Origin: Candidatus Omnitrophota bacterium
GTDB lineage: Bacteria > Omnitrophota > Gorgyraeia > Zapsychrales > Fredricksoniimonadaceae
NCBI GenBank assembly: GCA_015233375.1
Contig: JADFXW010000003.1
Coordinates: 1 to 43,065, forward strand
Reading direction: 5' to 3'
Length of the DNA stretch: 43,065 nucleotides
The notes beneath the pieces are model-generated. The model did not search any database and was not told the origin of the DNA. It was given only the letters and a program-made list of their open reading frames with translations. A program made the position numbers and the translations under genes. Shown piece by piece: positions 4,130 to 43,015 of this stretch; position 1 is the stretch's first letter, and every line of letters starts with the position of its first letter.

Positions 4130-7100
4130 ATGAAAACACTACAAAAAACCCTCTGTTGTTGTGTCATTGTTAGTTTCATTGTCACCTCGTTATTCAATCC
4201 TTCAGTATTTGCCCAAAATGTTTCTCAAGAAAATTTAACAAAATTATTGATTACCTTGCCTACGCCAGGCACAAGGGTAGATTTAAGCCCTGCATTTAAT
4301 CCTGTGGTTATCAGGGGTTTAAAAATCCATCCTGAAAACCCATTTTTATTCGATTTTATTGTTGATCCAGGTGATGACCATTTAAAGGGCGAGGGTTTAC
4401 GCACTCCTGTCCAACGCCTGGTTAATTATTTTTTGGCAGCCTTGGCTGTGCCTGAAAAAGACCTTTGGGTTAACTTGTCACCTGTGGAAAGAAACCGCAT
4501 TATCCCGGATTCTCTTAATAAAACAGAACTGGGAAGAGACCTTTTAGCAGAAGATTATATCCTCAAACAAGTAAGCGCTTCTTTAATATATCCTGAAAGC
4601 CATCTGGGGAAAGTTTTTTGGGCCAAGGTTTATGAGGAGGCTTATAAGAAATTTGGCAAAACCCAGGTGCCAGTCAATATTTTTAATAAAGTTTGGATAC
4701 TTCCTGAAAAAGCCTCAGTCTATGAAAAAGGCAACTCCGTTTATATTGTCAACGCGCATTTGAAGGTGATGCTGGATGATGATTTGATGGCCCAAGGTTT
4801 ATTGGGCAAGAAGGGGAGTTCAGGGTCAAAGGTTTCTGGGGTCAAGGATGTTTCAACAGATGTGATGCGCCAGGTGATTTTGCCGGCTATTGACAAAGAA
4901 ATTAATGAGGGGAAAAATTTTGCCCAGGTCAGACAATCTTTTTATTCATTGATATTGGCCCAATGGTACAGGGATGTATTCAAAGCCTCCATCCTTAATA
5001 AAGATTACGCGGGACGTAATAAGGTCGCGGGTATTGATTATAGTGATCCGAAGAATAAAAATGTTATTTACCAGAAATATTTAGCAGCCTATCGTAAAGG
5101 TGTTTTTAATTACATTAAAGACGAAACCAGCCTTTTGACTCAAAGTCCTTTACCAAGGAAGTATTTTTCGGGCGGGTTTGATGGTATGCACCGTGTAGAA
5201 CGCGACTCCGTGTCTTTGCCTGGCACAACAGCCGCAATGGCTTCTTCTGTGAATGTGCGGGTTAATATTGAGCCTTTGACGCAGCATGCATCAGCGGCCA
5301 TGATACCAGCTGAACTTCCACCTGATGACATATGGTTTTCTTTTCAGTTTCCACAAAAGGTTCTTCTCCCGCTATTAATAGATTGTTTAAGTAGTCCGCA
5401 TTATTTTAACAAGGACAAACTTTTTGCTTTTATAGAAAAATATTCACAAAAAGTGGCTGCTCAAAGAAAATCTCCTGTTGAAGGAGCATGGCCTGTGTTA
5501 AAAGCAATTACCCTGTTATCAAAAAGACAAGAAGCTGATTTGGTTGGAATTCTTCAAAAAAGATACCCTGATTTAAAAAATCGCCCTCTATTGGTTGATA
5601 AGATTCTATTAATGAATAATGTGGTTGATAAAGAAAATTGGTTAAAACAGAGGACTCCCCATTTGCAAGGCCGCAGGATATATCTGACCGCAGCAGAAAT
5701 TCATTATTGGTCAGGAGGTTTGGGTCCTGTCATGAAATTCCACGGCAAAGGCATGAAGGATTTAGGCGCAGATGTGTGTTATGTTGAGCCTCGTTATCAA
5801 TTAGGGAAGAATGTGCCAATAGCAAAATATAAAATTGCTGAGGCTTTAGGTTCTAACTATTTACAAAACTTGATAAGTGTGGGATTCTTGCACGAGGTGT
5901 CGTCTTTGGAAGTGAAGCCTAATTTACAAGGGGGAGTTCTTCAGGATTATGAACTGGAACAAGCTGTTGGTCTTGACATTGGTCGTCAGATAGTGGGAGT
6001 TTTGGTCAAGAGTCAATATGCCGAAATTATTGGACAAACTGAACTGCATCTTAGTAGGAATGTCAGTGAAAATGAGATTATATGGAACCTTGGTGAGCAT
6101 CATTTCCCAGAAGAAGTCAAAGTTGCTTTTCAAAAATTAATCCAGCGTTCTAAAAAAGTTTTACAAGATGATGAGGTCTTACGTGCATTAGGCTCTGATA
6201 AAGCCCGTAAATTTTGGAGTATTTTACCTCAAAAGCTTGATTATAGAAACGCTAATATCAAAATACACGATTTAGAGGAAGATGTGGATGAGTTTGTGAT
6301 TGAAATGGGAAACACCGATCCATGGGGAAATAAATTAGAAGGAATGGTTGTTAAAGAAGCTCTTTCATCTGATCCTAAAAAAGCTGAAACAATTTGGGAT
6401 GCTTTGCAAAGAGGTGGGATTATAGATTTCATGGGACAATATGCTGGACAAAGGATGTTTGATGAAACTACGATCAGGAATTTGCTTGATTTGCCGGGAA
6501 TTTCAGATCAAGAAAAGAAAGACGTTTCCGAAATGCTCTTACGAGTTGTGAGAGAAAATCTTAAGCAAGTTAGGGTCAAGGTTGCGAAGGGTGTGGATGA
6601 AAATGGAATCACGGTTTATTTATTTAAAGATGTAGGTTTTGATGGCGTATCATCCTATTACACCAAAATGCTTTATAGTTACCACAAACCTGATAATCCT
6701 ATTAGTCAAGAACAATCCATGGCTTTTATTAATATTGCAACCGCTGAATTGATAAATCGCCTTGAACGTCAAAGACAACAAGATGATCCTGATTGGAAAC
6801 CCGCCATAGTTCATGCCAATGATGGGCAATACGGTCCTTTACAAGCTGTTATGCAGAGCCGGCATGGCCATAATAACTGGATGGCTAATATTATTTACGC
6901 AGCAACAACACATACGTATCAAAATCGTGGTGGAAATGTTGTAGAATTTGGCATTAATACATTTTTGCGTTTTATGTTGAGGGTCAAAGAAAGATTCATT
7001 AGTGCCTTTCGACGTGGATTCAATTGGATTGATTTCACTAGTGGAGGCTTAAGGCTTGCTCATTGGGCTGGTGGTGTTAGTCAAAAACAAAGTAATGATG

Positions 7101-8629
7101 TTAACCCTTTAGACCCTCACACAAATGTGGTGGGGATTACGAATGGGGCTGTCCCTGAAGAAATGGCTGCTGTTTACCGTCAAACATTTAAAGAATTACA
7201 GAAAATTGGGGCTATCCCTCAAGATGCTGATTATGAAAGGCCAACATGGGAAGAAAATGCTAAAACGAAAGAAGCCTGCCGGGTAAAATTGAATAATGCT
7301 GACATTAGGACAGCTAATGGAGGGACATTAAGGGTTGGGAATGGGCCTATCATTGGTTATGCCAGAAGACTGGTTCCTGAGAAGGCAGGAAGAACAAGAA
7401 GAAATCTAGATCGTACTGTTGAGCCTGGGGCTTTTTCTGATACGAATATTAAGAGGATGGTTGCGTTAGGTTATGAAGTGGTTTTATTGGGTAATATTCA
7501 GGGTTCAGATGAAAGCGAGGATCTTGCCGCAGGGTTAAGGAGCTTAGAAAGGGAGATAAGAAGACTTAAACACAACGATCCCAATACATATAAAGGAAAT
7601 TTTCAATTTGTGGAGTCCTTTACCCCACAAGATAAGGTTTTGTTTGAAGCTGCTGTTAATATCCAAATCCAAGACTCTTGGCCTAGCACAGGAGCTTGTG
7701 AGTTTTCTGAGGAAGATTCCACTGCGACCGGGGGCGTTCAAGGCGGAACAGATGAAGGGGTTATTCAACGTCAAGGTATTCCGTTAAAATACCGAGAAAA
7801 AGACAAAGAACACGAACAGCCTGTAGGTCAAACTGTATTTCCTGCTGAGTATACCGAAGATTCATGGTATAACACGGTCTTTAAACCATTAAAGGAGTAT
7901 TGGGACAGAGACCGCGACCATAGAACATTTTATGAACATGCGGCTCTTTCTCCAAGATTAAACCGTATTCAAAACTATCTTTTAACATCAGCGGATTATT
8001 TAATGGAGTATCAAAAGGTTATTGAACTTCAGGAAAGAATTGCTGTTGAGGACACACAAGCGCTGAATGCTATCGTTAATGATCTTCAACAAAATCATGC
8101 AAGCGACATAAATGAAATTGTTTATAATTCGCACGGTATTGGTCCTTTTGGGTTTGATATTTATGGAGTCAGAGCTGAAAATGGGGGGTTACGATCTTTT
8201 CTTGATGCCCGGAATGGTTTAGAAAACACCGTTGGTTATGATGCTTTATTGCATTACACCCAGAGAGGCGATATTCAGAATTATTTAAAAGCTTTATTTC
8301 GCAATACTGGCCAATCTCAACAGATATTATCTCATTGGTTAGATAGAGTAGCAAGAGATGAAGATTTAAGCCTTGATCAAAAAAATCAACGTTTGGGGCA
8401 ATTTATTGAACAGCTGACATTGTCTCTGGAAGTCGCAGGGGTTAATCATGCCATGGCGCCTGGCGGTATCAAATTAGATAATATTGATATTGAAAAGCAT
8501 GGAAGCCTGACTGCCAATCTTGTTACAAATAAGACCCTTGAAGATATGCTTATTCAATCAGCAGGGGTTAGGGGAGATATTATGGCTATTACGGCTATCC
8601 CTAATCTCATGGAATTTATTGTTAAGTAA
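4130..8629 (+). CDS. P1: exported giant protein with conserved head, glycogen synthase/phosphorylase-like GT-B payload and conserved tail
   Basis: Signal peptide MKTLQKTLCCCVIVSFIVTSLFNPSVFAQ. Head motifs are shared with P2-P4 (HPENPFLFDFI, LWVNLSP, GRDLLAEDYILKQ, FNKVWILPEKA, INEGKNFA, PRKYFSGG). Middle motifs are SGGLGPV, IVHANDGQYGP, THTYQNRG, GITNGA and YARRLVPEKAG. Tail is GGIKLDN... An alternative TTG start lies at 4115. Confidence 0.85.
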   Translation: MKTLQKTLCCCVIVSFIVTSLFNPSVFAQNVSQENLTKLLITLPTPGTRVDLSPAFNPVVIRGLKIHPENPFLFDFIVDPGDDHLKGEGLRTPVQRLVNYFLAALAVPEKDLWVNLSPVERNRIIPDSLNKTELGRDLLAEDYILKQVSASLIYPESHLGKVFWAKVYEEAYKKFGKTQVPVNIFNKVWILPEKASVYEKGNSVYIVNAHLKVMLDDDLMAQGLLGKKGSSGSKVSGVKDVSTDVMRQVILPAIDKEINEGKNFAQVRQSFYSLILAQWYRDVFKASILNKDYAGRNKVAGIDYSDPKNKNVIYQKYLAAYRKGVFNYIKDETSLLTQSPLPRKYFSGGFDGMHRVERDSVSLPGTTAAMASSVNVRVNIEPLTQHASAAMIPAELPPDDIWFSFQFPQKVLLPLLIDCLSSPHYFNKDKLFAFIEKYSQKVAAQRKSPVEGAWPVLKAITLLSKRQEADLVGILQKRYPDLKNRPLLVDKILLMNNVVDKENWLKQRTPHLQGRRIYLTAAEIHYWSGGLGPVMKFHGKGMKDLGADVCYVEPRYQLGKNVPIAKYKIAEALGSNYLQNLISVGFLHEVSSLEVKPNLQGGVLQDYELEQAVGLDIGRQIVGVLVKSQYAEIIGQTELHLSRNVSENEIIWNLGEHHFPEEVKVAFQKLIQRSKKVLQDDEVLRALGSDKARKFWSILPQKLDYRNANIKIHDLEEDVDEFVIEMGNTDPWGNKLEGMVVKEALSSDPKKAETIWDALQRGGIIDFMGQYAGQRMFDETTIRNLLDLPGISDQEKKDVSEMLLRVVRENLKQVRVKVAKGVDENGITVYLFKDVGFDGVSSYYTKMLYSYHKPDNPISQEQSMAFINIATAELINRLERQRQQDDPDWKPAIVHANDGQYGPLQAVMQSRHGHNNWMANIIYAATTHTYQNRGGNVVEFGINTFLRFMLRVKERFISAFRRGFNWIDFTSGGLRLAHWAGGVSQKQSNDVNPLDPHTNVVGITNGAVPEEMAAVYRQTFKELQKIGAIPQDADYERPTWEENAKTKEACRVKLNNADIRTANGGTLRVGNGPIIGYARRLVPEKAGRTRRNLDRTVEPGAFSDTNIKRMVALGYEVVLLGNIQGSDESEDLAAGLRSLEREIRRLKHNDPNTYKGNFQFVESFTPQDKVLFEAAVNIQIQDSWPSTGACEFSEEDSTATGGVQGGTDEGVIQRQGIPLKYREKDKEHEQPVGQTVFPAEYTEDSWYNTVFKPLKEYWDRDRDHRTFYEHAALSPRLNRIQNYLLTSADYLMEYQKVIELQERIAVEDTQALNAIVNDLQQNHASDINEIVYNSHGIGPFGFDIYGVRAENGGLRSFLDARNGLENTVGYDALLHYTQRGDIQNYLKALFRNTGQSQQILSHWLDRVARDEDLSLDQKNQRLGQFIEQLTLSLEVAGVNHAMAPGGIKLDNIDIEKHGSLTANLVTNKTLEDMLIQSAGVRGDIMAITAIPNLMEFIVK

Positions 8630-8718
8630 AGAACTCCCCCTTACCCCCTCTTTAATCGCTTCGCAAAGAGGGGGTAAATAATTTTTCCCCCTCTTTAATG
8701 CTTCGTAAAGAGGGGGTA
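8630..8718. repeat. Hairpin repeat family A, double-hairpin copy (intergenic, after P1)
   Basis: GAACTCCCCCTTA, then CCCCCTCTTTAATCGCTTCGCAAAGAGGGGG (8644-8674), then CCCCCTCTTTAATGCTTCGTAAAGAGGGGG (8687-8718). The first hairpin is followed by an A/T-rich run and could terminate P1. Confidence 0.85.
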
Positions 8719-8783
8719 ATTTGAAGACCTTCATTTCCAAAATTTTCAATGCGATTTTGACTCCATAAGGGTATAATATCCAA

Positions 8784-10112
8784 ATGTATTTCCTTTATGA
8801 TATTATTTTATTTATATATGCCCTGATTTATTTGCCCTATCTTTTATTGACCCAAAGGGCTTATCCTGGATTTGGGATGCGGTTTGGCTTATTTCCAGGG
8901 TCTATTCAATCACAGATAAAGAACAAGGCCAATATTTGGATTCATGCGGTCAGTGTGGGTGAGGTTTTGGCTTTAGATGGGTTTATTGACCGTTTAGAAA
9001 CAGATTATCCTTCTTATCAGATAATTTTAACAGTTACAACCAAGACAGGGCTGGCTTTGGCGCGTCAACGCCTTAAGGATAAGGCCTTGGTTGTGCCTTC
9101 TCCCATAGATTTTAGCTTTGTTACCCGATATTTTGTCTCGTTCATTTCCCCTAAATGCTATATCGCTGTGGAAACTGAAATTTGGCCTAACCTTTACAGA
9201 CAGTTATCCCGCAAAAATATCCCTATGGTAGTCATTAACGGCAGAATTTCAGATGCTTCTTTTGGGAGGTATAAGGCCGTTTCTTTTCTTTTAAAAAGAT
9301 GCCTCAATCAGGTGACTAACTGGTGCATGCAAAGCCAGAAAGACGCTCAAAGAATCATTGATTTAGGGGCTAATCCTGATAGGGTGCGCGTTTGTGGGAA
9401 TTTAAAATTTGAGGCTGTGTCTCGTGGAGGAGGAAATTCTTTAAAAGATTGCTTCGCTTCGCTCGCAATGACAGAAGACAATGGGCGTTTACCTCATTAT
9501 CTTTGGTGGGTGGCGGGAAGCACGCATCCTGGTGAAGAGGAAATCGTTCTTGATACCTATAATCAAATGATTAAAGATAATCCCCAATGGCGTTTAATGA
9601 TAGCACCGCGGCATATTGAACGTGTGCCACAGATTGTTGATTTGGTGGGGCGTTTTGGATTTAGGGCTGTTAGGTTTTCTTCATTAGAACTGGATTCCTG
9701 CTTGTCGCGAAATGACAAAAAGGAAAACGGGGATGACCATGACAAGATTAAAGAGATACTCATTATAGATACGATAGGGCAATTGCGGTCGTTGTATGCG
9801 CTCGCAGATTTGGTTTTTGTGGGAAAAAGCCTGTGCGGTTTTGGCGGGCAAAATGTGATTGAACCTGCATTTTATGGTAAGGCTATTGTCATTGGACCTC
9901 GTTATGAAAATTTTCGGGATATTGTGGATTGTTTTAAAGAAGCTGGCGCTATTGTTCAAGTCGAAGATGTCCCTGCTTTTAAAACAACGGTGTTCAATTT
10001 ATCACAAGATGTTTCAAAACGTGAACAATTAGGCAAGGCTGCCCAAGGTGTCATTACGGCTAATCAAGGGGCAGTTGGACGGTGTTTAGAGATAATAAAG
10101 AAAATTATGTAA
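8784..10112 (+). CDS. waaA: 3-deoxy-D-manno-octulosonic acid (Kdo) transferase
   Basis: IWIHAVSVGEV near the N-terminus, STHPGEEE, and a C-terminal GT-B half typical of WaaA/KdtA. Carries two in-frame repeat relics (see findings). Confidence 0.92.
   Translation: MYFLYDIILFIYALIYLPYLLLTQRAYPGFGMRFGLFPGSIQSQIKNKANIWIHAVSVGEVLALDGFIDRLETDYPSYQIILTVTTKTGLALARQRLKDKALVVPSPIDFSFVTRYFVSFISPKCYIAVETEIWPNLYRQLSRKNIPMVVINGRISDASFGRYKAVSFLLKRCLNQVTNWCMQSQKDAQRIIDLGANPDRVRVCGNLKFEAVSRGGGNSLKDCFASLAMTEDNGRLPHYLWWVAGSTHPGEEEIVLDTYNQMIKDNPQWRLMIAPRHIERVPQIVDLVGRFGFRAVRFSSLELDSCLSRNDKKENGDDHDKIKEILIIDTIGQLRSLYALADLVFVGKSLCGFGGQNVIEPAFYGKAIVIGPRYENFRDIVDCFKEAGAIVQVEDVPAFKTTVFNLSQDVSKREQLGKAAQGVITANQGAVGRCLEIIKKIM
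9444..9473 (+). repeat. Hairpin repeat family C copy inside the waaA coding sequence, in frame
   Basis: AAAGATTGCTTCGCTTCGCTCGCAATGACA, translated as KDCFASLAMT. Matches 42768-42797 at 26 of 30 positions by hand alignment. Confidence 0.75.
9690..9723 (+). repeat. Degenerate CTGGATTCC...AATGACA-type repeat relic inside waaA, in frame
   Basis: CTGGATTCCTGCTTGTCGCGAAATGACAAAAAGG, translated as LDSCLSRNDKK. It shares CTGGAT(T/C)CC and ATGACAAA ends with the intergenic hairpin at 34203-34234. Confidence 0.45.
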
Positions 10113-10137
10113 GGGCAGACACAAGGTCCGCCCCTAC
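10113..10137. repeat. Hairpin repeat family D copy (GGGCAGACACAAGGTCCGCCCCTAC)
   Basis: Intergenic between waaA and lpxK. Same core as GGGCCGACACAAGGTCGGCCTCTGC at 36278-36302 inside P3. Confidence 0.6.
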
Positions 10138-10154
10138 GATTAGTTGGGATATCA

Positions 10155-11267
10155 ATGAGTCAATTTATGCTTTCAATCATGCAAGGTCAACGGCGGGATA
10201 TTATTGCTTGTTTGGTGATTGCTTTGCTTATGCCCTTGACCTTGCTTTATGCTTTAGGCGTTTTTTGTCATCGTTTATTTTATCGTTTCAAGGGTGTTTA
10301 TAAAGCGCCTTTGCCTGTGATTAGTATTGGGAATATCACCGTTGGAGGCACGGGTAAAACGCCTTTGGTGGTGTGGGTGGCCCAGGTTTTAAAGGATAAA
10401 GGGCTGAAAAGTGTTGTTTTAACACGTGGGCATATGCCTCAAGAGGGTCAACTCAGTGATGAGGCGCTTATGATGACGGAACAATTGCCTGATGTGCCTG
10501 TTTTATCAGGGGCGGATCGCATCAAGAATATAAAAAATAATAGTTTGTCTAGCAACGTCTATATTTTAGATGATGGCTTTCAACATTGGAAAATCCAGAG
10601 GGATTTGAATATACTGCTGATAAATGCGGCTAATCCATTTGGTAATGGGCATTTATTGCCTGCAGGTATTTTACGAGAAGGGCTTGGGGCTTTAAAGAGG
10701 GCGGATGTTATTGTCTTGACAAAAACTGATCAGGCAGGGGATATCAAAGCTTTATATAATAAGATACATCAAATAAATCCTTCTGTCCTTGTTATTGAAA
10801 GCTGTTATCAACAACCGCAAATAGTGGATGTTTTTTCTAGGGAACTCGTAAAAAAACTCCCCCTAACCCCCTCTTTAAAAAAAGAGGGGGGATTTATAGG
10901 GAAATCCTCTTTTTCAAAAATAGGGAGAAAAGGGATTTCCTATGGTACTGTATTAGCTTTTTGCGCTATTGCAGACCCTGCTTCTTTTGAATTTCAGCTA
11001 AGAAAAGTCTTCATCGCTCATGATATACAGATATTCAACTTTATGGATCATCATGTTTATACCAAGGAAGATGTTTTAAAAATCACTGAATCAGCAAGAG
11101 ATAATAACATAGCAACACTCGTTACAACACATAAAGATGCTGTTAAACTGTATCAATTCAAGGATATTTTTAAAGGATTTCGTTTGGTGTATATCTCTGC
11201 TCCAATAGAAATAACTAAAGGGTCGCATGAATTTGTTCAAAAAATCAATTCAATTTGCAGCTATTAA
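10155..11267 (+). CDS. lpxK: Tetraacyldisaccharide 4'-kinase
   Basis: ISIGNITVGGTGKTP (P-loop), LTRGH and ILDDGFQH are LpxK hallmarks. Contains an in-frame family A repeat insertion of about 100 nt. Confidence 0.9.
   Translation: MSQFMLSIMQGQRRDIIACLVIALLMPLTLLYALGVFCHRLFYRFKGVYKAPLPVISIGNITVGGTGKTPLVVWVAQVLKDKGLKSVVLTRGHMPQEGQLSDEALMMTEQLPDVPVLSGADRIKNIKNNSLSSNVYILDDGFQHWKIQRDLNILLINAANPFGNGHLLPAGILREGLGALKRADVIVLTKTDQAGDIKALYNKIHQINPSVLVIESCYQQPQIVDVFSRELVKKLPLTPSLKKEGGFIGKSSFSKIGRKGISYGTVLAFCAIADPASFEFQLRKVFIAHDIQIFNFMDHHVYTKEDVLKITESARDNNIATLVTTHKDAVKLYQFKDIFKGFRLVYISAPIEITKGSHEFVQKINSICSY
10841..10940. repeat. Hairpin repeat family A, double-hairpin copy inserted in frame in lpxK
   Basis: AACTCCCCCTAACCCCCTCTTTAAAAAAAGAGGGGGG, then GGAAATCC-TCTTTTTCAAAAATAGGGAGAAAAG-GGATTTCC. 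Translated as ELVKKLPLTPSLKKEGGFIGKSSFSKIGRKGIS with no stop codon. Confidence 0.8.
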
Positions 11268-13194
11268 ATCGATAGCTAACCTTTTTAATTGTCTGCCCAT
11301 GGGGCTTAACCTTTGGATAGGAAGATGTATAGGGCATCTTGTTTATTTTTTCCTTTCTCGTAAAAGAAGGGTGGTGTATGCCAATTTAAAGACCGTGTTT
11401 TCCCAGACCCATTCTCCTTCACAAATCCGTCGAATGACCAAGGAGGTGTCGGTCAACTTCTTTCAAAGTATTATAGAGTTTTTATGTTTGCCCAAAATCA
11501 AACGTTTAGGGTTTGAAAAATTTGTGACACTGGAGGGAAAAGAAAATATTGAACAAGCGCTGTCCAAAGGCAAGGGAGTCATCTTTTTGGCGGTCCATTC
11601 CGGGAGTTGGGAATTGGCGAGTATCATAGGCAGCCTGACAAACAGCACCTATCATATAGTCGCCAATGAACAACCTAAAATGCAGTCATTAGCCAAGATG
11701 CTTGATGAATACCGGACCATTGTTGGGGCGCATGTGATAAAAGCAGGAAGTGCCACCAAAGAAATCATTCAAGCCCTCAAAGCCAATGAGATAGTTTCTT
11801 TGGTTTTGGATCAAGGGGGAAGAACAGGGATGGTTTTGCCATTTTTAGGTAAAACAGCGTCCCTGTCAACAGGGGCCATTCGCCTTGCTTTAAAATATGG
11901 ATGTGCTGTTTGTCCCGTATGGATTGAGCGGCAGAATAATCGCAGGCATTTATTGCGTGTTTTTCCTGCCATGGATATGAGCGTTTCAGGTGATTTAAAA
12001 AAAGATTTACGAGATAACATGCTCAAGGCCACAGCCTTTTTCGAGAAAACTTTAAGAGAAAAACCTTTAGAATATATGTGGTTTTATAAGGTCTTTAAGT
12101 ATTCGACAAATAAAAGGATTGTGATTATTGATGATGGAAGAACCGGCCATTTAAGGCAATCCCAATCTGTGAGCAGGCATTTAACTGAAATTTTACAGAA
12201 AAAAGGAATAACTGTTGAAGAGAATACGGTATTTTTTGAATGGCGAAATCTTTGGGCTGCGCATTTATTTTCATTTTATTCCTTTTTAGCGCAATATTAC
12301 CCCTTATTAAGAAATGAAGACAATTTAAAACTGTTTCTGAAAAATCAGTCTTACAATAATTTGATAAAACAGAAAGCTGATTTTATCATTTCTTGCGGAT
12401 TTCAAGGGGCAGGGATCAATTTTATACTGAGTCAAAATCATTTGGCCCAATCTATTGGCATATTAACGTCTGGATTATTATCAAAGGACCATTTTAAGGC
12501 GCTTGTATGGCCTGCTCATCGCAAACCCTTTGCCTCAAAATGCACCTGTATTATTAGACCTAAGGTGTCACCAAATTTGATAAACCCATCCTACTTAAAA
12601 GAACAGGGAGAGGGTCTTATCAAACATTATTCACATCTAAGAGGCAATATGCGCCTGAAATTTGGCGTTTTGATAGGTGGGCATGCCAAAGGGATTAAAT
12701 TAAATGAAAAAGCAATACACGAATTATTAAGCCAGATCAAACAAGCTGCAGAGCATTATAACGCGGACATATTATTAACCACATCGAGGAGAACACCCAA
12801 ACCCATTGAACAATTAATACTCAGGGAATTAAAAAATTTCCAACGCCTCGGTCTTTGCATCATTGCGAATCAACGCAATGTGCCTCAAGCCGTAGGCGGC
12901 ATCTTGTATTTATCAGACCTTGTCATTGTTTCAGGAGAAAGCATATCCATGGTTTCAGAAGCGCTCAGTTCTAAGAAAAGGACCATTGTTTTTCATCCAC
13001 AGGGAGAATATGGGGTGAAACCAGCTAATAAATATGAAGATTTTGTATTGAAATTAAATGATGAAGGGTATCTAATGATTAGCTCAGTGGGCAATATAAA
13101 AACAACCATCGCGCAATTATTGGGTCAAAAATTCAAGTTAAAATCTTTGGATGATGAAAACATTATTAAAGAAGGATTGGCGCGGATTATTTAA
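11227..13194 (+). CDS. Fusion of an LpxL/HtrB-type lipid A late acyltransferase with an ELM1/GtrOC1-like putative glycosyltransferase domain
   Basis: The N-terminal ~295 aa resemble lauroyl/myristoyl acyltransferases (RKRRVVYANLKTVF, AVHSGSWE, DQGGR). The C-terminal part starts IVIIDDGRTGHLRQSQSV, typical of the Mito_fiss_Elm1-type family. Overlaps the lpxK end by 41 nt. Confidence 0.75.
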   Translation: MNLFKKSIQFAAIKSIANLFNCLPMGLNLWIGRCIGHLVYFFLSRKRRVVYANLKTVFSQTHSPSQIRRMTKEVSVNFFQSIIEFLCLPKIKRLGFEKFVTLEGKENIEQALSKGKGVIFLAVHSGSWELASIIGSLTNSTYHIVANEQPKMQSLAKMLDEYRTIVGAHVIKAGSATKEIIQALKANEIVSLVLDQGGRTGMVLPFLGKTASLSTGAIRLALKYGCAVCPVWIERQNNRRHLLRVFPAMDMSVSGDLKKDLRDNMLKATAFFEKTLREKPLEYMWFYKVFKYSTNKRIVIIDDGRTGHLRQSQSVSRHLTEILQKKGITVEENTVFFEWRNLWAAHLFSFYSFLAQYYPLLRNEDNLKLFLKNQSYNNLIKQKADFIISCGFQGAGINFILSQNHLAQSIGILTSGLLSKDHFKALVWPAHRKPFASKCTCIIRPKVSPNLINPSYLKEQGEGLIKHYSHLRGNMRLKFGVLIGGHAKGIKLNEKAIHELLSQIKQAAEHYNADILLTTSRRTPKPIEQLILRELKNFQRLGLCIIANQRNVPQAVGGILYLSDLVIVSGESISMVSEALSSKKRTIVFHPQGEYGVKPANKYEDFVLKLNDEGYLMISSVGNIKTTIAQLLGQKFKLKSLDDENIIKEGLARII

Positions 13195-13199
13195 GTGAG

Positions 13200-13383
13200 G
13201 TTTATGGACACTTTAAAAAGTTTTTTCCGAAACGGGATATTTTCGCCGTCGTCTACGGTTTGCGATAATTGTTTTCTAAAGCATCCTTAGTATATTTGGA
13301 AAACAATTATCGCAAAGCCTTGACGACTTTTGGCGAAAAATCCCTTAATGTTTCGGAAAAAACTTTTTAAAGTGTCCATAAAC
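13200..13383. repeat. 184-nt long palindromic element, family B, copy 1
   Basis: GTTTATGGACACTTTAAAAAG...CTTTTTAAAGTGTCCATAAAC is a near-perfect inverted repeat across its whole length. The second copy is at 25000-25183. Confidence 0.95.
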
Positions 13384-13409
13384 ACGCATCGCGTGAATTT
13401 AAAAAACAT

Positions 13410-15596: not shown

Positions 15597-15602
15597 ATAG
15601 AG

Positions 15603-20211: not shown

Positions 20212-20227
20212 AAGGGGTGGATATATT

Positions 20228-36022: not shown

Positions 36023-38503
36023 ATGATAAATTTATCTAAAAATCATCCTTTTTTTATCTGCATTACCGTATTCATTTTTTTATCTTTGAATATTAATCTA
36101 CCTTATCCAGCTTTTGCTCAAGACGTCTATTATCTTCCTGAACCAGGGACCATGGTCCATGTAAGCCAGGCCTTTGATTCACCTGTCTTAAAAGGTATTA
36201 AAGTTTATCCTGATAACCCTTTGCGGTTTGATTTTATTATGGATGTAGGGTCGGACTTTATGTCCGACCGAAATCATGGGCCGACACAAGGTCGGCCTCT
36301 GCGAATGGAAGCAGGCAAGCTCATCAAATATTTTCTCGCAAGCCTTACTGTTCCTGAAAAAGACCTTTGGGTTAATTTAAGTCCCTATGAGAAAAACCGC
36401 ATTATTCCTCATAGCTTTGGATTAACTCAAATGGGCCGTGACTTGTTAGGGGAAGATTATGTATTAAAACAAATCACAGCTTCGCTAATTTATCCAGAAG
36501 ATGCCATAGGTAAAAATTTTTGGAAAAGAATATATGAACAAGCAGTTATAAAATATGGAACAACGAATATTCCAGTCAACACTTTTAATAAGGTATGGAT
36601 AGTGCCAGAGAAGGCGATTGTGTATGAAAACACTAAGGCCGGGACAGCGTATGTGATGGAAAGCAAATTAAAGGTGATGCTGGAGCAGGATTATTTGGCA
36701 TTAGAGAAAACCCAGCGGCCTACCAGGGGACATGTTCAAAGCAGAACATCAAAGAACGTGTCCCCAAGCACGTTGCCAAGCGAAGTAGCATTGAATATGA
36801 AAGCGCCCCAAGGAAATCCCCGTACGCCAAACAAAGACATCAACGCTCTTGGTTCTAAAATTATCCGTGAAATCGTCATTCCACAACTAACAAAAGAGGT
36901 GAATGATAATAAAAATTTCGCCAAATTACGACAGGTGTACAATTCACTCATATTAGCTACATGGTATAAACAAAAAATTAAAGACAGTCTATTAGAAGCG
37001 GTATATGCAGATAAAAATAAAGTTGCTGGAATAGGTTATGAGAAGGGGACAGGGTCCTTGAAAGCCAGGGCCCTGTCTTCTTCAACACCTAACGATATCG
37101 AATTTATCTATCAGCGCTACCTTCAAGCCTTCAAAAAAGGCGTTTATAACTATATTAAGGAAACTCAAGACCCTGTCACAAGGCAAAATATTCCAAGAAA
37201 ATATTTCTCAGGCGGGATTAAATGGGAGATTACTCGAGCCATGGTTGTAACTCATCAATTAGATAAAAATATGAAAAGCCTGCCTAACAGGCTATATGAG
37301 GTTGAGGCTAATTTGATCATGTCTGAAGATGAGGCTATTGAAAGGGCAGGTATTGCGGTACGCAGAATTCTTCTACATGATTCAAGTCTAAGACAAACGC
37401 CGCTTGAGATACAAAATTTAAGAAGATTCTTAATAGATTGTGAAGAAGAATTGACTGATTTGCATTATCAGGAGCAGGCGGTGTTTTATTATCATAAATT
37501 GGATGAAGCGTTTCATGTGTTAATGGAGGCGCGTCCATTTGCTATTTCTTCTAAAGAGGGTAAAGCTGATCTTGAAGGATCTATGCTTGCTATTTCGCAA
37601 CTAGAGAAGTGCTTATTGATAGTTCAGGACCTGTACGAAAAATTCAAGAATGAAAATTTTCTGGATGCCAGATCCTATGAATCGTGTTTGATGTTCTTTA
37701 ATCTTATCTTAGATGGGCTTAAATCCAGCTTAGAAATTGCCCGTAGAAAGCTGTTTTCAGAAACAACAAACGTGAAAGAAGTTATTGAGGCATTTCATAA
37801 ACTTCATTCCTATGTGCGTATTATAGACAATTCACCTCAACAACCATTGATTATAAAAGGTGACTCAATGGCCTTAATATGCGCTCTTCACAATTTAGCT
37901 TATAATGCCATTTCTGCACTAAATGGAATAAAAAAGAAAGCAGAAATTGTCTTAACAGTTTCTGTGGATAGTGGAAATTTGGTTTTATCGGTTTCTGATA
38001 ACGGTCCAGGTTTTGATAATCCGCCGGTTCCTGGTCGTCCGCCAGCTCTTGATTGGGACCCTGTTACAAATAGACAACGGATATTCAATTTAAATGTTAC
38101 CTCAGGAGCAATCAGTAAAAGCACGGGCTTGGGAACTACCGAAGTGTATTATGTGGTCAAAGACCATTTTGGAGAAATAACGGCAAACAATAGACTAGAT
38201 GATCAAAATTCAATCATTGGAGCTAACTTCACTATCAGAATACCTTTATCTATTGAGGCCGTAGACACAGCTATTATAAAGAATTCCAAAGTTATTCCGC
38301 AGCAAAAGATAGATGTAAAATATGGAGGTATTGATTTAACTAATTCAAAAGTTCTAGAGACAAAAAAAGACAATAAAGGGATTAATTTTAAGTTTGATCC
38401 AATATTATTTCAGGAATGGAAGAACGCAAGAGGCTTTTCTGCGGCAGTCACAAGCGTTAAACTCATCAAAAGCGTTCAAGAATTTGTGCAAAATCCTACT
38501 TGA
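36023..38503 (+). CDS. P3: exported protein with conserved head, histidine-kinase-like (HATPase_c) payload and conserved tail
   Basis: ATG at 36023 preceded by AAGGA. Signal peptide ends AFAQ. The head closely resembles P4. Payload has an H-box-like LHDSSLRQTPL, N box LHNLAYNAISA, G1 DNGPGF and G2 TGLGT. Tail is YGGIDLTNSKVL... Confidence 0.85.
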   Translation: MINLSKNHPFFICITVFIFLSLNINLPYPAFAQDVYYLPEPGTMVHVSQAFDSPVLKGIKVYPDNPLRFDFIMDVGSDFMSDRNHGPTQGRPLRMEAGKLIKYFLASLTVPEKDLWVNLSPYEKNRIIPHSFGLTQMGRDLLGEDYVLKQITASLIYPEDAIGKNFWKRIYEQAVIKYGTTNIPVNTFNKVWIVPEKAIVYENTKAGTAYVMESKLKVMLEQDYLALEKTQRPTRGHVQSRTSKNVSPSTLPSEVALNMKAPQGNPRTPNKDINALGSKIIREIVIPQLTKEVNDNKNFAKLRQVYNSLILATWYKQKIKDSLLEAVYADKNKVAGIGYEKGTGSLKARALSSSTPNDIEFIYQRYLQAFKKGVYNYIKETQDPVTRQNIPRKYFSGGIKWEITRAMVVTHQLDKNMKSLPNRLYEVEANLIMSEDEAIERAGIAVRRILLHDSSLRQTPLEIQNLRRFLIDCEEELTDLHYQEQAVFYYHKLDEAFHVLMEARPFAISSKEGKADLEGSMLAISQLEKCLLIVQDLYEKFKNENFLDARSYESCLMFFNLILDGLKSSLEIARRKLFSETTNVKEVIEAFHKLHSYVRIIDNSPQQPLIIKGDSMALICALHNLAYNAISALNGIKKKAEIVLTVSVDSGNLVLSVSDNGPGFDNPPVPGRPPALDWDPVTNRQRIFNLNVTSGAISKSTGLGTTEVYYVVKDHFGEITANNRLDDQNSIIGANFTIRIPLSIEAVDTAIIKNSKVIPQQKIDVKYGGIDLTNSKVLETKKDNKGINFKFDPILFQEWKNARGFSAAVTSVKLIKSVQEFVQNPT
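36247..36302. repeat. Two adjacent perfect hairpins inside the P3 head (GGTCGGAC-TTTAT-GTCCGACC, plus a family D copy GGCCGAC-ACAAG-GTCGGCC), in frame
   Basis: Read directly from the sequence. Translated as VGSDFMSDRNHGPTQGRPL. The site is a length-variable loop in the four-way protein alignment. Confidence 0.75.
36726..36765. repeat. Hairpin repeat family E inside the P3 head, in frame
   Basis: GGGGACATGT...ACGTGTCCCC. The homologous site in P4 is 42288-42321. Confidence 0.6.
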
Positions 38504-38594: not shown

Positions 38595-39773
38595 ATGGAA
38601 CAAATCATCCCTCTTTTTAACTCTGTTGAACGCTTAGAAGCGCAATTAAAACTAGGCAAAGAATCAGGCGATTATTCTAAAGATTTAGAATTTTATATGA
38701 CCGTTGAATTCCTGCTTAGCTATAAAGGCAGCAAAGACACGGTTGCCTCCTATCGCCGTGAATTGGAAAAACTTCTTCTTTGGTCCAGGATGATATTTAA
38801 GAAACCTATAAAAAGTATTACCCGTTCAGACATTGAAGAATTTATTGAATTTTGTAAGAAACCGCCCCTTTCCTGGATTGGCTTAGAAGTGGCTGATCGT
38901 TTCATTCAACAAAATGGAAAAGAAATCCCTAACCCTAAATGGCGCCCCTTTGTGAATAAAACAGGAAATGTTTACAAGCTCTCTGATTCTGGTGTCAGGG
39001 CCCTTTTTGCTGTTTTAAACAGTTATTTTGGCTTTTTAATCCAACAAGAATACATATTTGTAAATCCGGTGGCCCTTATTAGGCAAAAAAAGAGATTTTT
39101 GCGCACAACACAAGAACTTCCAAGGATTCGTAGAATTTCTAATGTTGCCAAGGAATATTTAATAGCTGAAGCTGAAAGAATGGCGCAAGAAAACCCACAT
39201 ATTCATGAAAGAACCCTTTTTATTATTAAGGCCTTGCTAGCCATGTATCTGCGTATTTCTGAATTAACTGAAAATGACCGTTGGCAGCCTAAGATGAATG
39301 ATTTCCATAAAGACACGGATGGACGCTGGTGGTTTTATACCATTGGTAAAGGTAATAAGGAAGGGGAAATATCAGTCAGCGATCAGATGCTGGATGCCTT
39401 AAAAAGATACAGGACACATTTAGGCTTATCCCCCCTGCCTTCAATTGATGATGACTCCCCTCTTATTTTTAAATACCGTAAAGGCCATGGCGGCATCACA
39501 AGCACCAGGCAAATAAGAGGCATTGTTCAAGAATGTTTTGATAGGACGGTCAATATTTTATTGAAAGAAGGCAAGGAAGAAGACGCTCATGAATTAAGAC
39601 ACGCCACTGTCCATTGGCTAAGACACACCGGTATTTCAGAAGATATTAAAAGCGGCCGCCCCAGAGAACACGTGCGCGATGACGCCAGACACAGCTCGAG
39701 CGTCATCACAGACCGGTATATAGACGTCTCAAAAGCTGAGCGCCACGACTCTGCAAAAGATAAGAAAATATAA
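38595..39773 (+). CDS. Tyrosine recombinase / phage-integrase-family protein
   Basis: N-terminal SAM-like core-binding region. Catalytic-domain motifs are LRISEL (Arg), HWLRHTG (His-x-x-Arg), ARHSS and TDRYI (Tyr). Confidence 0.88.
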   Translation: MEQIIPLFNSVERLEAQLKLGKESGDYSKDLEFYMTVEFLLSYKGSKDTVASYRRELEKLLLWSRMIFKKPIKSITRSDIEEFIEFCKKPPLSWIGLEVADRFIQQNGKEIPNPKWRPFVNKTGNVYKLSDSGVRALFAVLNSYFGFLIQQEYIFVNPVALIRQKKRFLRTTQELPRIRRISNVAKEYLIAEAERMAQENPHIHERTLFIIKALLAMYLRISELTENDRWQPKMNDFHKDTDGRWWFYTIGKGNKEGEISVSDQMLDALKRYRTHLGLSPLPSIDDDSPLIFKYRKGHGGITSTRQIRGIVQECFDRTVNILLKEGKEEDAHELRHATVHWLRHTGISEDIKSGRPREHVRDDARHSSSVITDRYIDVSKAERHDSAKDKKI

Positions 39774-39799: not shown

Positions 39800-42700
39800 T
39801 TATGGCTTATCTAAAAATTCACGTAAATTGCCCACTAAATGCCAGCCAGTAACCATGGGCTCAAACCCTACAGACTTCTCTAATGCCGCAAGCTGGGCTT
39901 GATTGAATTGAAGTTTTATGGCTCGGCCAGAATGCTGGATTTCCAAGAGCACCTTGCCAGCGGTCAAATCAATACCACCTTTATCCAGATCATGATGTTG
40001 GGTCATGGCAAACGAGGCCATTGCCGGCGTTTTTCCTGCAATTTTCTTAGGATCATCTGTTGAAATAAAATTTATTATGACTGTTTTTCTTGTCCCACGC
40101 TCATATCTTGCCACAATTCTTCTGTCTTCAGCGATGATGACTGTCATATCCTCATAAACAGGTAAATCCCAAAACAATATAACAGGTTTATTAGTAGGAG
40201 CCGCCCATCCAACAATCCTATGAGTTTGGTCATCATATAAAAATGTACCTGGAACAAAATACTTCAATGTATCATCAATACTATGCTCAAATTCAATAGC
40301 TGACCAGGGTAAAGTGATATCAGTTGTTCCGTCAATCCCATCCGTTTCAACATGATCGATAACATTTGCGACCTGTTTAGCTATACAATCATGGGATTGA
40401 CCACCAATGATAACAACATGTTTTCGACTACCATGCATAAACCACCGATGCATTAAAAAGCTTTCTAAATCAAAAAATTTATGATGCTCGGCTTGGAAAG
40501 TATGATTGATATTATCAAGCGCTGTTAATTTTATTTCTTCAGCGAGCTTATCCTTTGTGTTATCAAAAAACCAAGAATGCCTTTTTCGAAAATCTTTAAT
40601 ATATATTAAATGTGTCATAATAGAAGCTGGTTCAATGAACGCGGGATAGCTTGACGGATGTGTTTTAGTTTCATGATAAAAATTCACAGCATAGTCGAGC
40701 AAATATTTTGAAAACCGAATTGTTACAGTTTCTTGAAAAGAATCCAATCTTTTTCTTAGGCCTGTTAGATAATGAATATCTTTTTCTTCAATCAAATCTG
40801 GCCTTTTCTTCATGATTTCAATAAATAATATAGCAATAATCCCTTCATGTCGGTCATAAAATTCTAAATCCCTCCCAGTTTGATATCGACTAATAATTCT
40901 CACAGTGTCTGCAGTGAGAATATGACAACCTGAAGGCGATAACCTTACCATATTAGCCAATGTCAAGGTCACAATTTGAGATATTTGTCTTGTCATAAGC
41001 GTAACTATAGAATCTTGAGAAGTTCCTTGAACTTTAAAGCACAAATCGGATAGTTCCTCTAAAAGCAAAACAAAATCCCTTGATCTATACTCAGGATTTA
41101 ACGCCACCGCTGTTAACACATGTTGCAATAAATAGATACCATTCAAGTTGTCTAAATTCTGTTCAACAAATTTAATAATTTTCCTAAAAACTTCTCTGGC
41201 TTCAACTTGCTTGGCACCATACATTTCATGAACGAGAAAAACCGCTCTCTTTTTTAAAATTTCGTCTTTTTTCTCCTTTACGCTCAAGGAGCTAATTTTT
41301 TTAAGAATATACTCTATCAATTCATAATTTTGACCCATCACAGGATATGCTGTTTCAAATAATTCACCATCATCCTCTACTCCTTGTAATTGAAGGGATA
41401 AAAAATGTCTATACGCCTTGATGAATTTTTGTGTTTTGTTATCCCCTATACGCTGACTAGCCTGAGGTAAAAATTCTTCAATAAATTCATTTATCACAGC
41501 AGAGTATGGATCTATTTCAAAAACATGACTCATCACAGCCATCGTCTCTAATATAACAATTCGAATATCCTTTTCATCTAAATTAAATAACAAAAGATGT
41601 CTGGCCTGTTCAAGAATCCTTATGGATTGCGCCATTCTCACAGTAACGGGTCGAGATCGAAACTGTTGTGATTCATTCTTAAAATCTTCTATACCTATCA
41701 CCCCCAAATCGATAGGCTGATTTGATTTATCTATACTATCAGGATCTCCTGTTTTTATCGTCATGGCGGTGTTGACAATAATATTCGATGATGCCCCTGC
41801 CTTATCGATATCATGACGCAACCCCGCAGGAATATTTTCCGTATTGAAAACTGTCATTGTAGGACTCATCAGCGTGACCCCGCCTGAAAAATATTTCTTT
41901 GGCATCATCTCTTGGGTAACGGGATCGATTTCTTCTTTGATATAGTTATAAACGCCTTTCTTAAAAGCCTTTAAGTATTGCTGATAAATCTTCTCCTTCT
42001 CGTTAGGGTCATCGATATTGACACCAACGATTTTGCTCTTGTCGGCATAGTTCGAAAAGAAGATACTGTCCTTTATTTTTTTCTTGTACCATATCGCAAG
42101 AATCACGCTATTGTAAACCTGCCTAAGCGATGCAAAATTCCTATTTTCATTAACTTCCTTGGTTAATTCTGGAATAACAATTTCCCGAATAATTTTAGAG
42201 CCAAGGGCGTTGATGTCTCTGATTGGCGTACGGGGGTTTCCCTGGGGTGCTTTCATATTCAATGCTACTTCGCTTGGCCACCTGCTTGGGGACACGTCCC
42301 TAAAAAACGGGACATGTCCCCTGGTTGGCATTAGGGTTTCGCCGTGTTTAAACATCGCCACATAATCTTCTTCCAACATCACCTTTAATTTGCTTTCAAC
42401 CACATACGCTGTTTTGACCGTAGTGTTTTCATAAACAACCGCTTTCTCTGGCACTATCCATACCTTATTAAAAGTGTTGACCAGCACATCCGTTGTTCCA
42501 TATTTCTTGGCCGTTTCTTCATATATCTTTTTCCAAAACCTTTTACCTACTTCATCTTCAGGATAAATTAAAGAAGCCGTGATTTGCTTGAGGATATAGT
42601 CAAGAGCCAGGAGGTCGCGGCCCATTTGGGTTAAACCAAAAGATTGGGGGATAATACGATATTTTTCATACGGGCTTAAATTCACCCATAAATCTTTTTC

Positions 42701-43015
42701 TGGGATTGTTATACTGGCCAGAAAATATTTGATGAGTTTCGTGGCTTCGGTTTTAAGTTGTTCTTGCAAAGATTGCTTCGCTCTGCCCGCAATGACACTA
42801 GGAGAGTCACCTTTGTCTAAAATAAAATCAAAATAGAATGGGTTTTCTGGATGGACCTTGATTCCTTTAAGTATTGGTGGATTAAACGGCAGGCTTAAAT
42901 GGACCATGACACCAGGTGCCGGCAATCTATAATCATAAGCATTAACAGGCATAGGACCTATACCTGTTAACAGAAAACTTGCCAAAGTTAAAACAACTAA
43001 TGGAGACCTGAGCAT
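39800..43015 (-). CDS. P4: exported protein with conserved head, helical-repeat/unknown payload and conserved tail
   Basis: SD GAGGGGGA lies 5 nt before the ATG. Signal peptide ends VNAY. In the stretches aligned by hand the head is roughly 85-90 percent identical to P3 at the nucleotide level. The middle is helical and unassigned. Tail is KGGIDLTAGKVL... Confidence 0.85.
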   Translation of the reverse strand: MLRSPLVVLTLASFLLTGIGPMPVNAYDYRLPAPGVMVHLSLPFNPPILKGIKVHPENPFYFDFILDKGDSPSVIAGRAKQSLQEQLKTEATKLIKYFLASITIPEKDLWVNLSPYEKYRIIPQSFGLTQMGRDLLALDYILKQITASLIYPEDEVGKRFWKKIYEETAKKYGTTDVLVNTFNKVWIVPEKAVVYENTTVKTAYVVESKLKVMLEEDYVAMFKHGETLMPTRGHVPFFRDVSPSRWPSEVALNMKAPQGNPRTPIRDINALGSKIIREIVIPELTKEVNENRNFASLRQVYNSVILAIWYKKKIKDSIFFSNYADKSKIVGVNIDDPNEKEKIYQQYLKAFKKGVYNYIKEEIDPVTQEMMPKKYFSGGVTLMSPTMTVFNTENIPAGLRHDIDKAGASSNIIVNTAMTIKTGDPDSIDKSNQPIDLGVIGIEDFKNESQQFRSRPVTVRMAQSIRILEQARHLLLFNLDEKDIRIVILETMAVMSHVFEIDPYSAVINEFIEEFLPQASQRIGDNKTQKFIKAYRHFLSLQLQGVEDDGELFETAYPVMGQNYELIEYILKKISSLSVKEKKDEILKKRAVFLVHEMYGAKQVEAREVFRKIIKFVEQNLDNLNGIYLLQHVLTAVALNPEYRSRDFVLLLEELSDLCFKVQGTSQDSIVTLMTRQISQIVTLTLANMVRLSPSGCHILTADTVRIISRYQTGRDLEFYDRHEGIIAILFIEIMKKRPDLIEEKDIHYLTGLRKRLDSFQETVTIRFSKYLLDYAVNFYHETKTHPSSYPAFIEPASIMTHLIYIKDFRKRHSWFFDNTKDKLAEEIKLTALDNINHTFQAEHHKFFDLESFLMHRWFMHGSRKHVVIIGGQSHDCIAKQVANVIDHVETDGIDGTTDITLPWSAIEFEHSIDDTLKYFVPGTFLYDDQTHRIVGWAAPTNKPVILFWDLPVYEDMTVIIAEDRRIVARYERGTRKTVIINFISTDDPKKIAGKTPAMASFAMTQHHDLDKGGIDLTAGKVLLEIQHSGRAIKLQFNQAQLAALEKSVGFEPMVTGWHLVGNLREFLDKP
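42288..42321. repeat. Hairpin repeat family E inside the P4 head, in frame
   Basis: GGGGACACGTCCC-TAAAAAAC-GGGACATGTCCCC, with 13-nt arms and one mismatch. Confidence 0.65.
42768..42797 (+). repeat. Hairpin repeat family C copy inside the P4 head, in frame on the minus strand
   Basis: AAAGATTGCTTCGCTCTGCCCGCAATGACA. Translated on the minus strand as VIAGRAKQSL. Confidence 0.75.

Follow-up and report, generated by a model that had tools for sequence, protein, structure and literature searches.

Why would four proteins encoded in one stretch of bacterial DNA begin and end alike and have nothing in common in between, and where would such proteins work? This question is raised by a contig of Candidatus Omnitrophota bacterium (JADFXW010000003.1, assembly GCA_015233375.1), positions 1 to 43,065 of which were analysed and are hereinafter called the window. 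A preliminary description had proposed that its genes P1–P4 encode paralogues with a common head and a common tail around unrelated middle sections (cargo). Calling of open reading frames (ORFs) and translation returned all four genes with the boundaries listed below, and this layout was borne out by BLASTP comparison of the heads, by a hidden Markov model (HMM) of the tail and by the lack of similarity between the middles. Homology places P1–P4 as four paralogues in a family that extends through the Omnitrophota and has a fixed layout, with a head of ~320 aa and a tail of ~58 aa. Because of this architecture, the coupling of head and tail, the diversity of cargo, the signal features and a recurrent junction motif, we give roughly even odds (about 0.5) to the reading that the family consists of modular proteins exported through Sec, in which head and tail would serve as common export, targeting or processing handles. 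The genes and their parts are as follows (aa, amino acids; related loci are numbered with L).

4130–8629, plus strand: P1 gene, 1,499 aa, with signal peptide, head, starch-synthase-like cargo and divergent tail
4130–4213, plus strand: predicted Sec signal peptide of P1 (aa 1–28, …SVFA/QN), its sole hydrophobic segment, with a small-x-small site 5' of LPxPG
4214–5176, plus strand: head of P1 (aa 29–349, ending …KYFSGG); BLASTP E ~1e-95 against the other three
5177–8461, plus strand: cargo of P1 (aa 350–1444); orthologous cargo in L007, L003, L002 and L006
6521–7099, plus strand: Glyco_transf_5 (starch-synthase catalytic) domain in the P1 cargo (aa 798–990; Pfam E 4e-11)
aa 367, 388 and 1439 of P1, plus strand: xAM motifs of the cargo (motif scan)
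8462–8626, plus strand: tail of P1, divergent subtype (aa 1445–1499, GGIKLDNIDIEKHG…IPNLMEFIVK)
29797–34167, plus strand: P2 gene, 1,456 aa, with signal peptide (aa 1–32/34), head, FHA-containing cargo and tail
29899–30828, plus strand: head of P2 (aa 35–344); BLASTP E 1e-95 to 1e-103
30829–33984, plus strand: cargo of P2 (aa 345–1396), with [DN]xAM at aa 397, 654 (directly after FHA) and 1384
31612–31749, plus strand: FHA domain in the P2 cargo (aa 606–651; Pfam E 3.7e-9; weak FHA-like match to PDB 1uht)
33985–34164, plus strand: tail of P2 (aa 1397–1456, GGIDFNSANLAMIIKRD…); independent tail HMM 23.7 bits, E 2e-9
36023–38503, plus strand: P3 gene, 826 aa, with signal peptide (aa 1–32, nt 36023–36118), head, HATPase_c cargo and tail
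36119–37216, plus strand: head of P3 (aa 33–398), with a low-complexity loop insertion in common with P4
37217–38323, plus strand: cargo of P3 (aa 399–767); related cargo in L068
37859–38251, plus strand: HATPase_c domain in the P3 cargo (aa 613–743; Pfam E 1.9e-8; weak histidine-kinase NCBIfam matches)
38324–38500, plus strand: tail of P3 (aa 768–826, GGIDLTNSKVLETKKDNKGINFKFDP…); independent tail HMM 50 bits
39800–43015, minus strand: P4 gene, 1,071 aa
42938–43015, minus strand: signal peptide of P4 (aa 1–26)
41879–42937, minus strand: head of P4 (aa 27–379)
39980–41878, minus strand: cargo of P4 (aa 380–1012), without Pfam or PDB match
39803–39979, minus strand: tail of P4 (aa 1013–1071); independent tail HMM 49 bits

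The head, the tail and the extent of the family

Pairwise BLASTP of the four heads gave alignments of ~340–420 aa with 40–64% identity and E values from 1e-95 to 1e-158, the closest pair being P3 and P4 (64% identical, E 1e-158). After predicted cleavage the head comprises 321 aa in P1, 310 in P2, 366 in P3 and 353 in P4 and ends with the invariant …KYFSGG. The expected length was about 350 aa, and every motif quoted for the head in the preliminary description was recovered in the alignment. The DNA identity of the P3 and P4 heads is 76–78% over 392 and 274 nt; with no value above 78% and no near-identical tracts among P1–P4, recent gene conversion is not evident. Comparison of the DNA upstream of the four genes revealed no common motif. 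For P3 an alternative start at TTG 35945 is possible, while ATG 36023 yields the signal-peptide-like N-terminus.

A word-indexed search with the P4 head produced 1,245 relatives, and nearly every informative source name among them is Candidatus Omnitrophica/Omnitrophota; other labels, such as Elusimicrobia (L010) and Minisyncoccia (P0063, short contig), belong to a few short or fragmentary records. The relatives listed in this search are proteins not exceeding ~1.75 times the query length, hence short or truncated members, and the protein search with the tail under the same bound gave C-terminal fragments only. More than 590 loci were confirmed among the matches listed (one genome per species was scanned). 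Related loci were fetched with 10 kb flanks, and in the 80 kept there are up to 8 copies in one metagenome-assembled genome. Exhaustive HMMER search of 1.84 billion representatives with the head registered 8,365 clusters (50% identity) at E <= 1e-3 and 6,763 at E <= 1e-30. In all of the top 150 matches listed the head is single-copy and starts at residue 1–51, the length of these proteins ranging from 435 to 2,915 aa. The longest head-bearing ORFs, of more than 3,690 aa, run off the fetched loci L022, L053 and L074. At L074 (0-9804; 9877-20935) an ORF of >3,268 aa ending in the tail lies 70 bp from a head-bearing ORF of >3,686 aa; such tandem very long members, also L022/L053, suggest continuity with the giant genes of this phylum. 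No description of the family was found in the searchable literature.

The tail occupies the extreme C-terminus of P1–P4 and starts with the invariant GGI(D)L. A common tail of about 65 aa had been proposed; it is clear in P2–P4, while its measured length is slightly smaller (55–60 aa) and the tail of P1 is divergent. Direct BLAST of the tails gave weak similarity (P3–P4 E 1e-5, P2–P4 E 0.004, none for P1). The HMM built from unrelated members only assigned the scores listed above to P3, P4 and P2, and a non-significant −0.1 bits to P1. The latter has its own subtype, GGID(A/V)RNIxVxRxG…ALExxL…PGLxGxIxxIxPI, which is common to the orthologues in L001, L002, L003, L006 and L007, and the general tail model recognises two of these, L002 and L007. 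Through them, the P1 tail may be considered homologous by transitivity.

With the iterated tail model, the tail was found at the C-terminus of 64 out of 71 complete head ORFs in the loci, and 124 of 142 representatives have it ending <=28 residues from the C-terminus. Most of the tail-less exceptions are truncated or split genes with a tail ORF immediately downstream. A head ORF followed by an adjoining tail ORF is seen in L044 (9865-12883 / 12855-13686), L038 (5856-7176 / 7179-10323), L018 (6088-7678 / 7687-9664) and L043; such splitting could stem from a frameshift or in-frame stop, from faulty assembly or from decay. A tail without a head was not encountered in the loci or representatives, apart from N-terminally cut ORFs. 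The identities of head and tail co-vary across 218 complete members (Spearman 0.82).

Neither part resembles anything already named, as had been anticipated from the sequence. Searches of Pfam and NCBIfam with full-length P1–P4 matched only the cargos, leaving head and tail without a match; precomputed Pfam annotation is empty for head-only relatives, and the head profile had no match among PDB sequences. When 56 heads were compared with Pfam at E <= 1, DUF896 appeared below threshold in 20 of them (best E 0.006), aligned to a K/E-rich helix; this similarity was judged compositional. The AlphaFold2 model of the P1 head (predicted local distance difference test, pLDDT, 80; predicted template modelling score, pTM, 0.74) contains two β-hairpins and seven helices. 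Foldseek comparison of the head with PDB and BFVD, and of head plus tail with PDB, gave nothing at E < 1e-3, with template modelling (TM) scores <= 0.15. Thus, neither profile nor Foldseek searches brought head or tail to a characterised domain. Among the insignificant Foldseek matches, ClyA-family pore-forming toxins (NheA, MakA and MakB, a helical bundle with β-hairpin) recur for both independent models, that of the P1 head and that of the cargo-less member P0071 described below (E 0.1–0.9, TM ~0.1), which is a lead only.

P0071 is a natural protein of 438 aa, in which signal peptide, head, a linker of 13–15 residues and tail follow one another without cargo. It is a genuine internal gene, located on contigs of 32–44 kb. 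In its AlphaFold2 model (pTM 0.70) the tail forms a small α/β unit with pLDDT 75–89, the strands of which pair mutually, not clearly completing the sheet of the head, and the PVIINI segment carries no strand assigned by DSSP.

The existence of such a protein and the covariation of both ends invite the idea that head and tail make up one split domain with its own activity, the middle being an insertion that couples partners and trafficking being incidental. Many polar residues of the head, located on helices and in a predicted loop, are invariant (WVNLSPYEKxR, GRDLL, DYxLKQ, EVNEGxNF, LRQ), as this idea would expect. Its most conserved motif, WVNLSPYEKxRIIP, falls in a lower-confidence loop of the P1 head model. 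Conservation of the head between the window and the organism of L029 (47–54%) is comparable to that of SerRS (61%). However, no catalytic family or fold is detectable, the tail strands of the model pair with each other and not clearly with the head sheet, and the signal peptide and junction motif would be left unexplained. We therefore regard a split functional domain as unlikely.

Cargo and its junctions

The cargo comprises 1,095 aa in P1, 1,052 in P2, 369 in P3 and 633 in P4, close to the range of about 400 to about 1050 aa expected from the preliminary description, and the four middles are indeed unrelated, with no significant BLASTP similarity (best E ~0.3 or worse). The proposal that conserved ends surround a swappable payload holds for the family at large. 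Among 218 complete members, 23,490 of 23,641 pairs (99.4%) have BLAST-unrelated cargo at a mean head identity of 69%, and the cargos of 68 complete proteins fell into 61 clusters. Even heads more than 80% identical can bear unrelated cargos (192 vs 1,774 aa). In the family as a whole cargo length spans 13 to >3,300 aa; related genomes, when examined across it, do not keep to one architecture with an unchanging payload.

The Pfam census covered 59 cargos and the listed relatives. Central and carbohydrate metabolism is represented by Glyco_transf_5, UDPGP, both N- and C-domains of PEPCK (L077), PPDK_N with the phospho-His domain of glucan-water dikinase (L021) and a full-length PGK domain (360 bits, L009). 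There are also Glu/Leu and alanine dehydrogenases; signalling domains, such as receivers (L064), HATPase_c, protein kinases and the FHA of P2; methyltransferases, HAD, HD, GNAT and CofD; and HEAT and TPR repeats. Most short cargos have no Pfam match, and PDB sequence searches with the cargos of P1, P2 and P4 resulted solely in the weak FHA match for P2. In terms of recognisable domains, therefore, the cargo is composed of cytoplasm-type enzymes and signalling domains, not toxins. Each paralogue has orthologues elsewhere, and their payload is conserved approximately as well as the head (for P1 and its orthologue in L007, 46 and 50% identity, respectively). Such parallel conservation marks the family genes as old and stable, not as fast-swapping cassettes.

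These data bear on the comparison with polymorphic effector or toxin logic made in the preliminary description, of which the modular layout with a variable payload stood, while the toxin and immunity part did not. In a polymorphic toxin system a conserved delivery part would carry exchangeable toxins against competitors, and the producer would be protected by immunity proteins. The conserved N-terminal part and variable cargo comply with this scheme; one instance of the Zeta-toxin Pfam was found among ~120 listed relatives, and a gene for a PIN domain lies ~300 bp downstream of P2. However, it is the C-terminal end that is conserved here (the tail is present in ~90% of complete members) rather than variable, cargo domains are overwhelmingly non-toxin and are kept between orthologues, and no TPS, RHS, LXG or PAAR trafficking domain was found with Pfam and NCBIfam. 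Besides the PIN gene after P2, the genes downstream are kdtA (P1) and that of a tyrosine recombinase (P3), with nothing small after P4, so that nothing like a small immunity gene stands behind P1, P3 or P4. A polymorphic toxin system is therefore disfavoured as a highly improbable explanation.

The borders of the cargo are marked. Of 228 complete members, 145 have [DN]xAM in the first 40 aa behind the head and 114 in the last 40 aa ahead of the tail, while shuffles gave ~2 (max 6) in either position. Inside the cargo the motif was registered 234 times against 35 expected by shuffling (6.7-fold enrichment). Wherever its position was checked against Pfam, it fell outside the domains, in the stretches between them, for example directly after the FHA of P2. 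Near the junctions of each of P1–P4 there are xAM-type motifs; in P3 the motif is confined to the head side, and DTAI precedes the tail. The Gly-Gly/[DN]xAM junctions of the cargo are the likeliest candidates for sites of recognition or proteolytic release.

Proposed export, destination and known systems

Each of P1–P4 has one hydrophobic segment, which is N-terminal, with a small-x-small site just before the conserved LPxPG. By heuristic features the signal peptide is predicted to comprise 28 aa in P1, 32–34 in P2, 32 in P3 and 26 in P4, and a Sec-type signal peptide, proposed for all four, thus fits their N-termini. The same pattern is typical of the family. Of 262 N-termini, 92% carry positive charge in the n-region and 96% a small-x-small site, which in 63% is placed exactly 4 residues before LPxPG; the uncharged core is 12 residues long at the median (interquartile range 11–16). 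A second hydrophobic segment is absent in 73% of complete members, including P1–P4. With a median of only 12 uncharged residues the core is too short for a membrane anchor, and the pattern as predicted is that of a cleaved Sec signal peptide, not an anchor.

The same features bear on another possibility, that the N-terminus is an uncleaved anchor and the proteins are tethered to the inner membrane with their enzymes working inside the cell. Such a tether would suit the cargo, which is typical cytoplasmic biochemistry, and was favoured for giant proteins without signal peptides (bioRxiv 10.64898/2026.06.07.730766); as a "TM-only" interpretation it has been put forward for many long proteins of Omnitrophota. 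However, positive charge before the core predicts N-in, C-out orientation in 92% of cases, the core, with its median of 12 residues, leads into Pro/Gly and an AxA-type site whose distance is fixed, and 73% of members lack a second hydrophobic segment to bring the chain back. An inner-membrane tether facing the cytoplasm thus seems very unlikely.

According to the export reading, a cleavable signal peptide would direct the head–cargo–tail protein to the Sec pathway, and head and tail, diverging together, would act as common modules of recognition beyond the inner membrane, of targeting and/or of processing. Cargo of any kind would then leave the cytoplasm of the producer, either for its own surface or for the interior or surface of a host or prey cell, possibly being cut off at the Gly-Gly/[DN]xAM junctions. 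Some further route would be required across the outer membrane, one candidate for which is encoded in the window itself.

19732–29684, plus strand: complete type II secretion operon (GspC-like, secretin GspD, GspE, GspF, pseudopilin region, GspK, PilM/N-type GspL, GspM/PilO; Pfam)

This operon ends 113 bp 5' of P2, and type II secretion may be considered a candidate outer-membrane route for the family, though the link is weak. Several observations weigh against the export reading or this part of it. A terminator-like hairpin (29715–29739, 10-bp stem with T-run) intervenes between the last gene of the operon and P2, which suggests that P2 is transcribed separately. GspK/L is found upstream in 1 of 78 related loci and a PilT/GspE-like ATPase in 3 of 78. 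Clustering of 766 neighbouring ORFs in these 78 loci did not reveal a conserved neighbour that might be a transporter or protease; recurrent neighbours are limited to generic GAF and TPR proteins. The cargo also includes enzymes dependent on ATP, nucleoside diphosphate (NDP) sugars or S-adenosylmethionine (SAM), which have no obvious extracytoplasmic substrates, so that the export model has to assume that they are delivered into another cell or act on the lysate of prey. Finally, the PGK-like cargo of L009 (3526-9226) aligns end to end with bacterial PGKs apart from an insertion of ~30 aa, and its motifs are altered (HLGRP→HLGDP, GGGD(S/T)→GGEDT, STGGGA→STAGGA), so that some of the cargo may be inactive as enzymes or neofunctionalised.

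The same need for cofactors bears on an arrangement in which the proteins are exported and not released, head and tail forming an envelope scaffold, periplasmic or at the surface, to which diverse enzymes and binding modules are tethered, like a smaller version of the giant-protein "coat", the cargo acting on material of lysed prey. The signal-peptide features fit this arrangement equally well, co-divergence of the coupled ends would be natural for one assembly unit, the tail of P0071 is modelled fairly confidently together with its head, and no dedicated transporter gene is situated nearby. A surface coat has been proposed for the giant protein of V. archaeovorus (PMC10066038). However, no lipobox, no Pfam domain binding the cell wall or outer membrane and no β-barrel was found, ATP, SAM and NDP-sugars are lacking outside the cell, and the enriched junction motif reads more easily as a processing or recognition site. 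We consider such a scaffold rather improbable.

Going beyond common handles for Sec export, one may tentatively suppose, with more doubt than belief, that head and tail are two cleavable handles of a new, phylum-specific delivery pathway, which would carry the cargo across the outer membrane into a host or prey cell and release it by cutting at Gly-Gly/[DN]xAM, so that the metabolism of the victim is re-wired. The head might then be a membrane-active module of helical bundle and β-hairpin, and the archaeovorins would be concatenated multi-cargo versions of the same design.

The latter are the giant proteins of Omnitrophota ("Archaeovorins"), for which an action on prey has been proposed (West-Roberts et al. 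2023, bioRxiv 10.1101/2023.11.21.568195; 2026 complete-genome preprint, bioRxiv 10.64898/2026.06.07.730766). They belong to the same phylum, contain the same domains (starch synthase, HATPase_c, methyltransferase, GNAT, HAD, receiver, PPDK_N, HEAT), have signal peptides in many cases, and type II-like secretion loci are often adjacent to or upstream of their genes, as one adjoins P2 here. Their N-terminal regions are described as having no identifiable domains. In contrast to P1–P4, which comprise 826–1,499 aa and have no internal hydrophobic segment, their length is 10–150 times greater, and most of them have many transmembrane helices. Head, tail and junction motif are not described in the literature on these giant proteins (Seymour 2023, PMC10066038, and both bioRxiv papers cited above).

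Other systems share one or another property with the family. Type IX cargo also combines an N-terminal Sec signal with a small conserved domain that ends very diverse proteins and is removed after transport; however, here a conserved domain is N-terminal as well, the tail is shorter (~58 aa), and none of the tails of P1–P4 matched Por_Secre_tail/TIGR04183 in Pfam and NCBIfam. Type IX secretion, furthermore, is a system of Bacteroidota and the FCB (Fibrobacteres–Chlorobi–Bacteroidetes) group. In TpsA/CdiA a signal peptide and a conserved N-terminal secretion handle of ~250–300 aa precede a variable part, as the head does here, but the head is α/β with long helices rather than a β-helix of the two-partner secretion (TPS) type, and its variable part is internal. 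The TPS Pfam gave no match, no gene of a TpsB partner (POTRA/ShlB) was found in the window, and, unlike in CdiA and polymorphic toxins, no immunity genes or toxin domains were found. Mycobacterial PE/PPE proteins are likewise lineage-specific expanded paralogues with a conserved N-terminal secretion handle and variable C-terminal parts including enzymes, and they are processed at the surface; they differ in type VII secretion, in having neither a Sec signal nor a conserved C-terminal tail, and in unrelated folds.

A similar layout, with conserved N- and C-terminal regions around exchangeable effector modules, is offered by MARTX toxins, whose modules are freed by linker cleavage. They differ in type I secretion without a signal peptide, in glycine-rich repeat flanks and in a cysteine protease domain, whereas the family has a Sec-type N-terminus and no Pfam match to RtxA glycine-rich repeats or that protease domain. 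An autotransporter translocator is a C-terminal β-barrel of at least ~250 aa or a trimeric anchor of ~70 aa with a terminal aromatic residue; the tail, mixed α/β of 55–60 aa without terminal aromatic residue or Pfam match, does not resemble it. Features of a type II substrate are represented by the heuristically predicted Sec signal and by the machinery encoded in the window. Thus, the family lacks the defining features of type IX cargo, TpsA/CdiA, PE/PPE and MARTX. It may be assigned to the kind "conserved secretion handle plus variable cargo", being unusual in its two handles, unmatched folds and cytoplasm-type cargo.

Omnitrophota, ultra-small bacteria of wide distribution, apparently depend on hosts or live as predators, and their mode of acting on other cells is debated by means of the giant proteins, in which "cytoplasmic" domains stand against predicted export. 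The family recasts this paradox in a tractable form: its members, thousands in number, are of ordinary size, and each consists of a clean signal peptide and a single cargo that is enclosed between two defined handles and set off by a marked junction. Profile models of head, tail and junction motif can catalogue the exported cargo of any Omnitrophota genome, and cargo-less P0071 is suited to structural work. If the handles are sufficient for export, they would constitute a generic two-ended secretion tag.

Neighbouring genes and repeats

Between P1 and P2 the plus strand carries one long block of genes (8784-29684), in which those for lipid A and the lipopolysaccharide (LPS) core (8784–19628) are followed by the type II secretion operon. 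The lipid A/core genes include KdtA, LpxK, a fusion of LpxL with an ELM1-like part (11227–13194) and a GT4–GT9 fusion (13410–15497), with three further heptosyltransferase-like genes. The PIN-domain gene downstream of P2 (34465-34953) is likely the toxin of a toxin–antitoxin pair, and the tyrosine-recombinase gene of the phage-integrase family (38595-39773) separates P3 from P4.

The Rfam scan of the window gave no match. Two types of repeats were noticed in this part of the window. A nested palindrome of 203 nt, near-perfect, is present in two intergenic copies that are 92% identical, one after the lpxL-like gene (13195-13397) and the other after gspF (24995-25197). Its 34-nt arms are 100% complementary, with an RNA fold of −108.7 kcal/mol (z = −18), and it looks like a MITE-like (miniature inverted-repeat transposable element) or structured repeat element. 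A shorter G/C hairpin repeat, CCCCCTCTTTAA…AAAGAGGGGG, is interspersed with the genes of the LPS and type II secretion part at 8629-8716, 10852-10918, 15507-15621 and 20229-20269 and looks like a REP-like (repetitive extragenic palindromic) element or a common intrinsic terminator.

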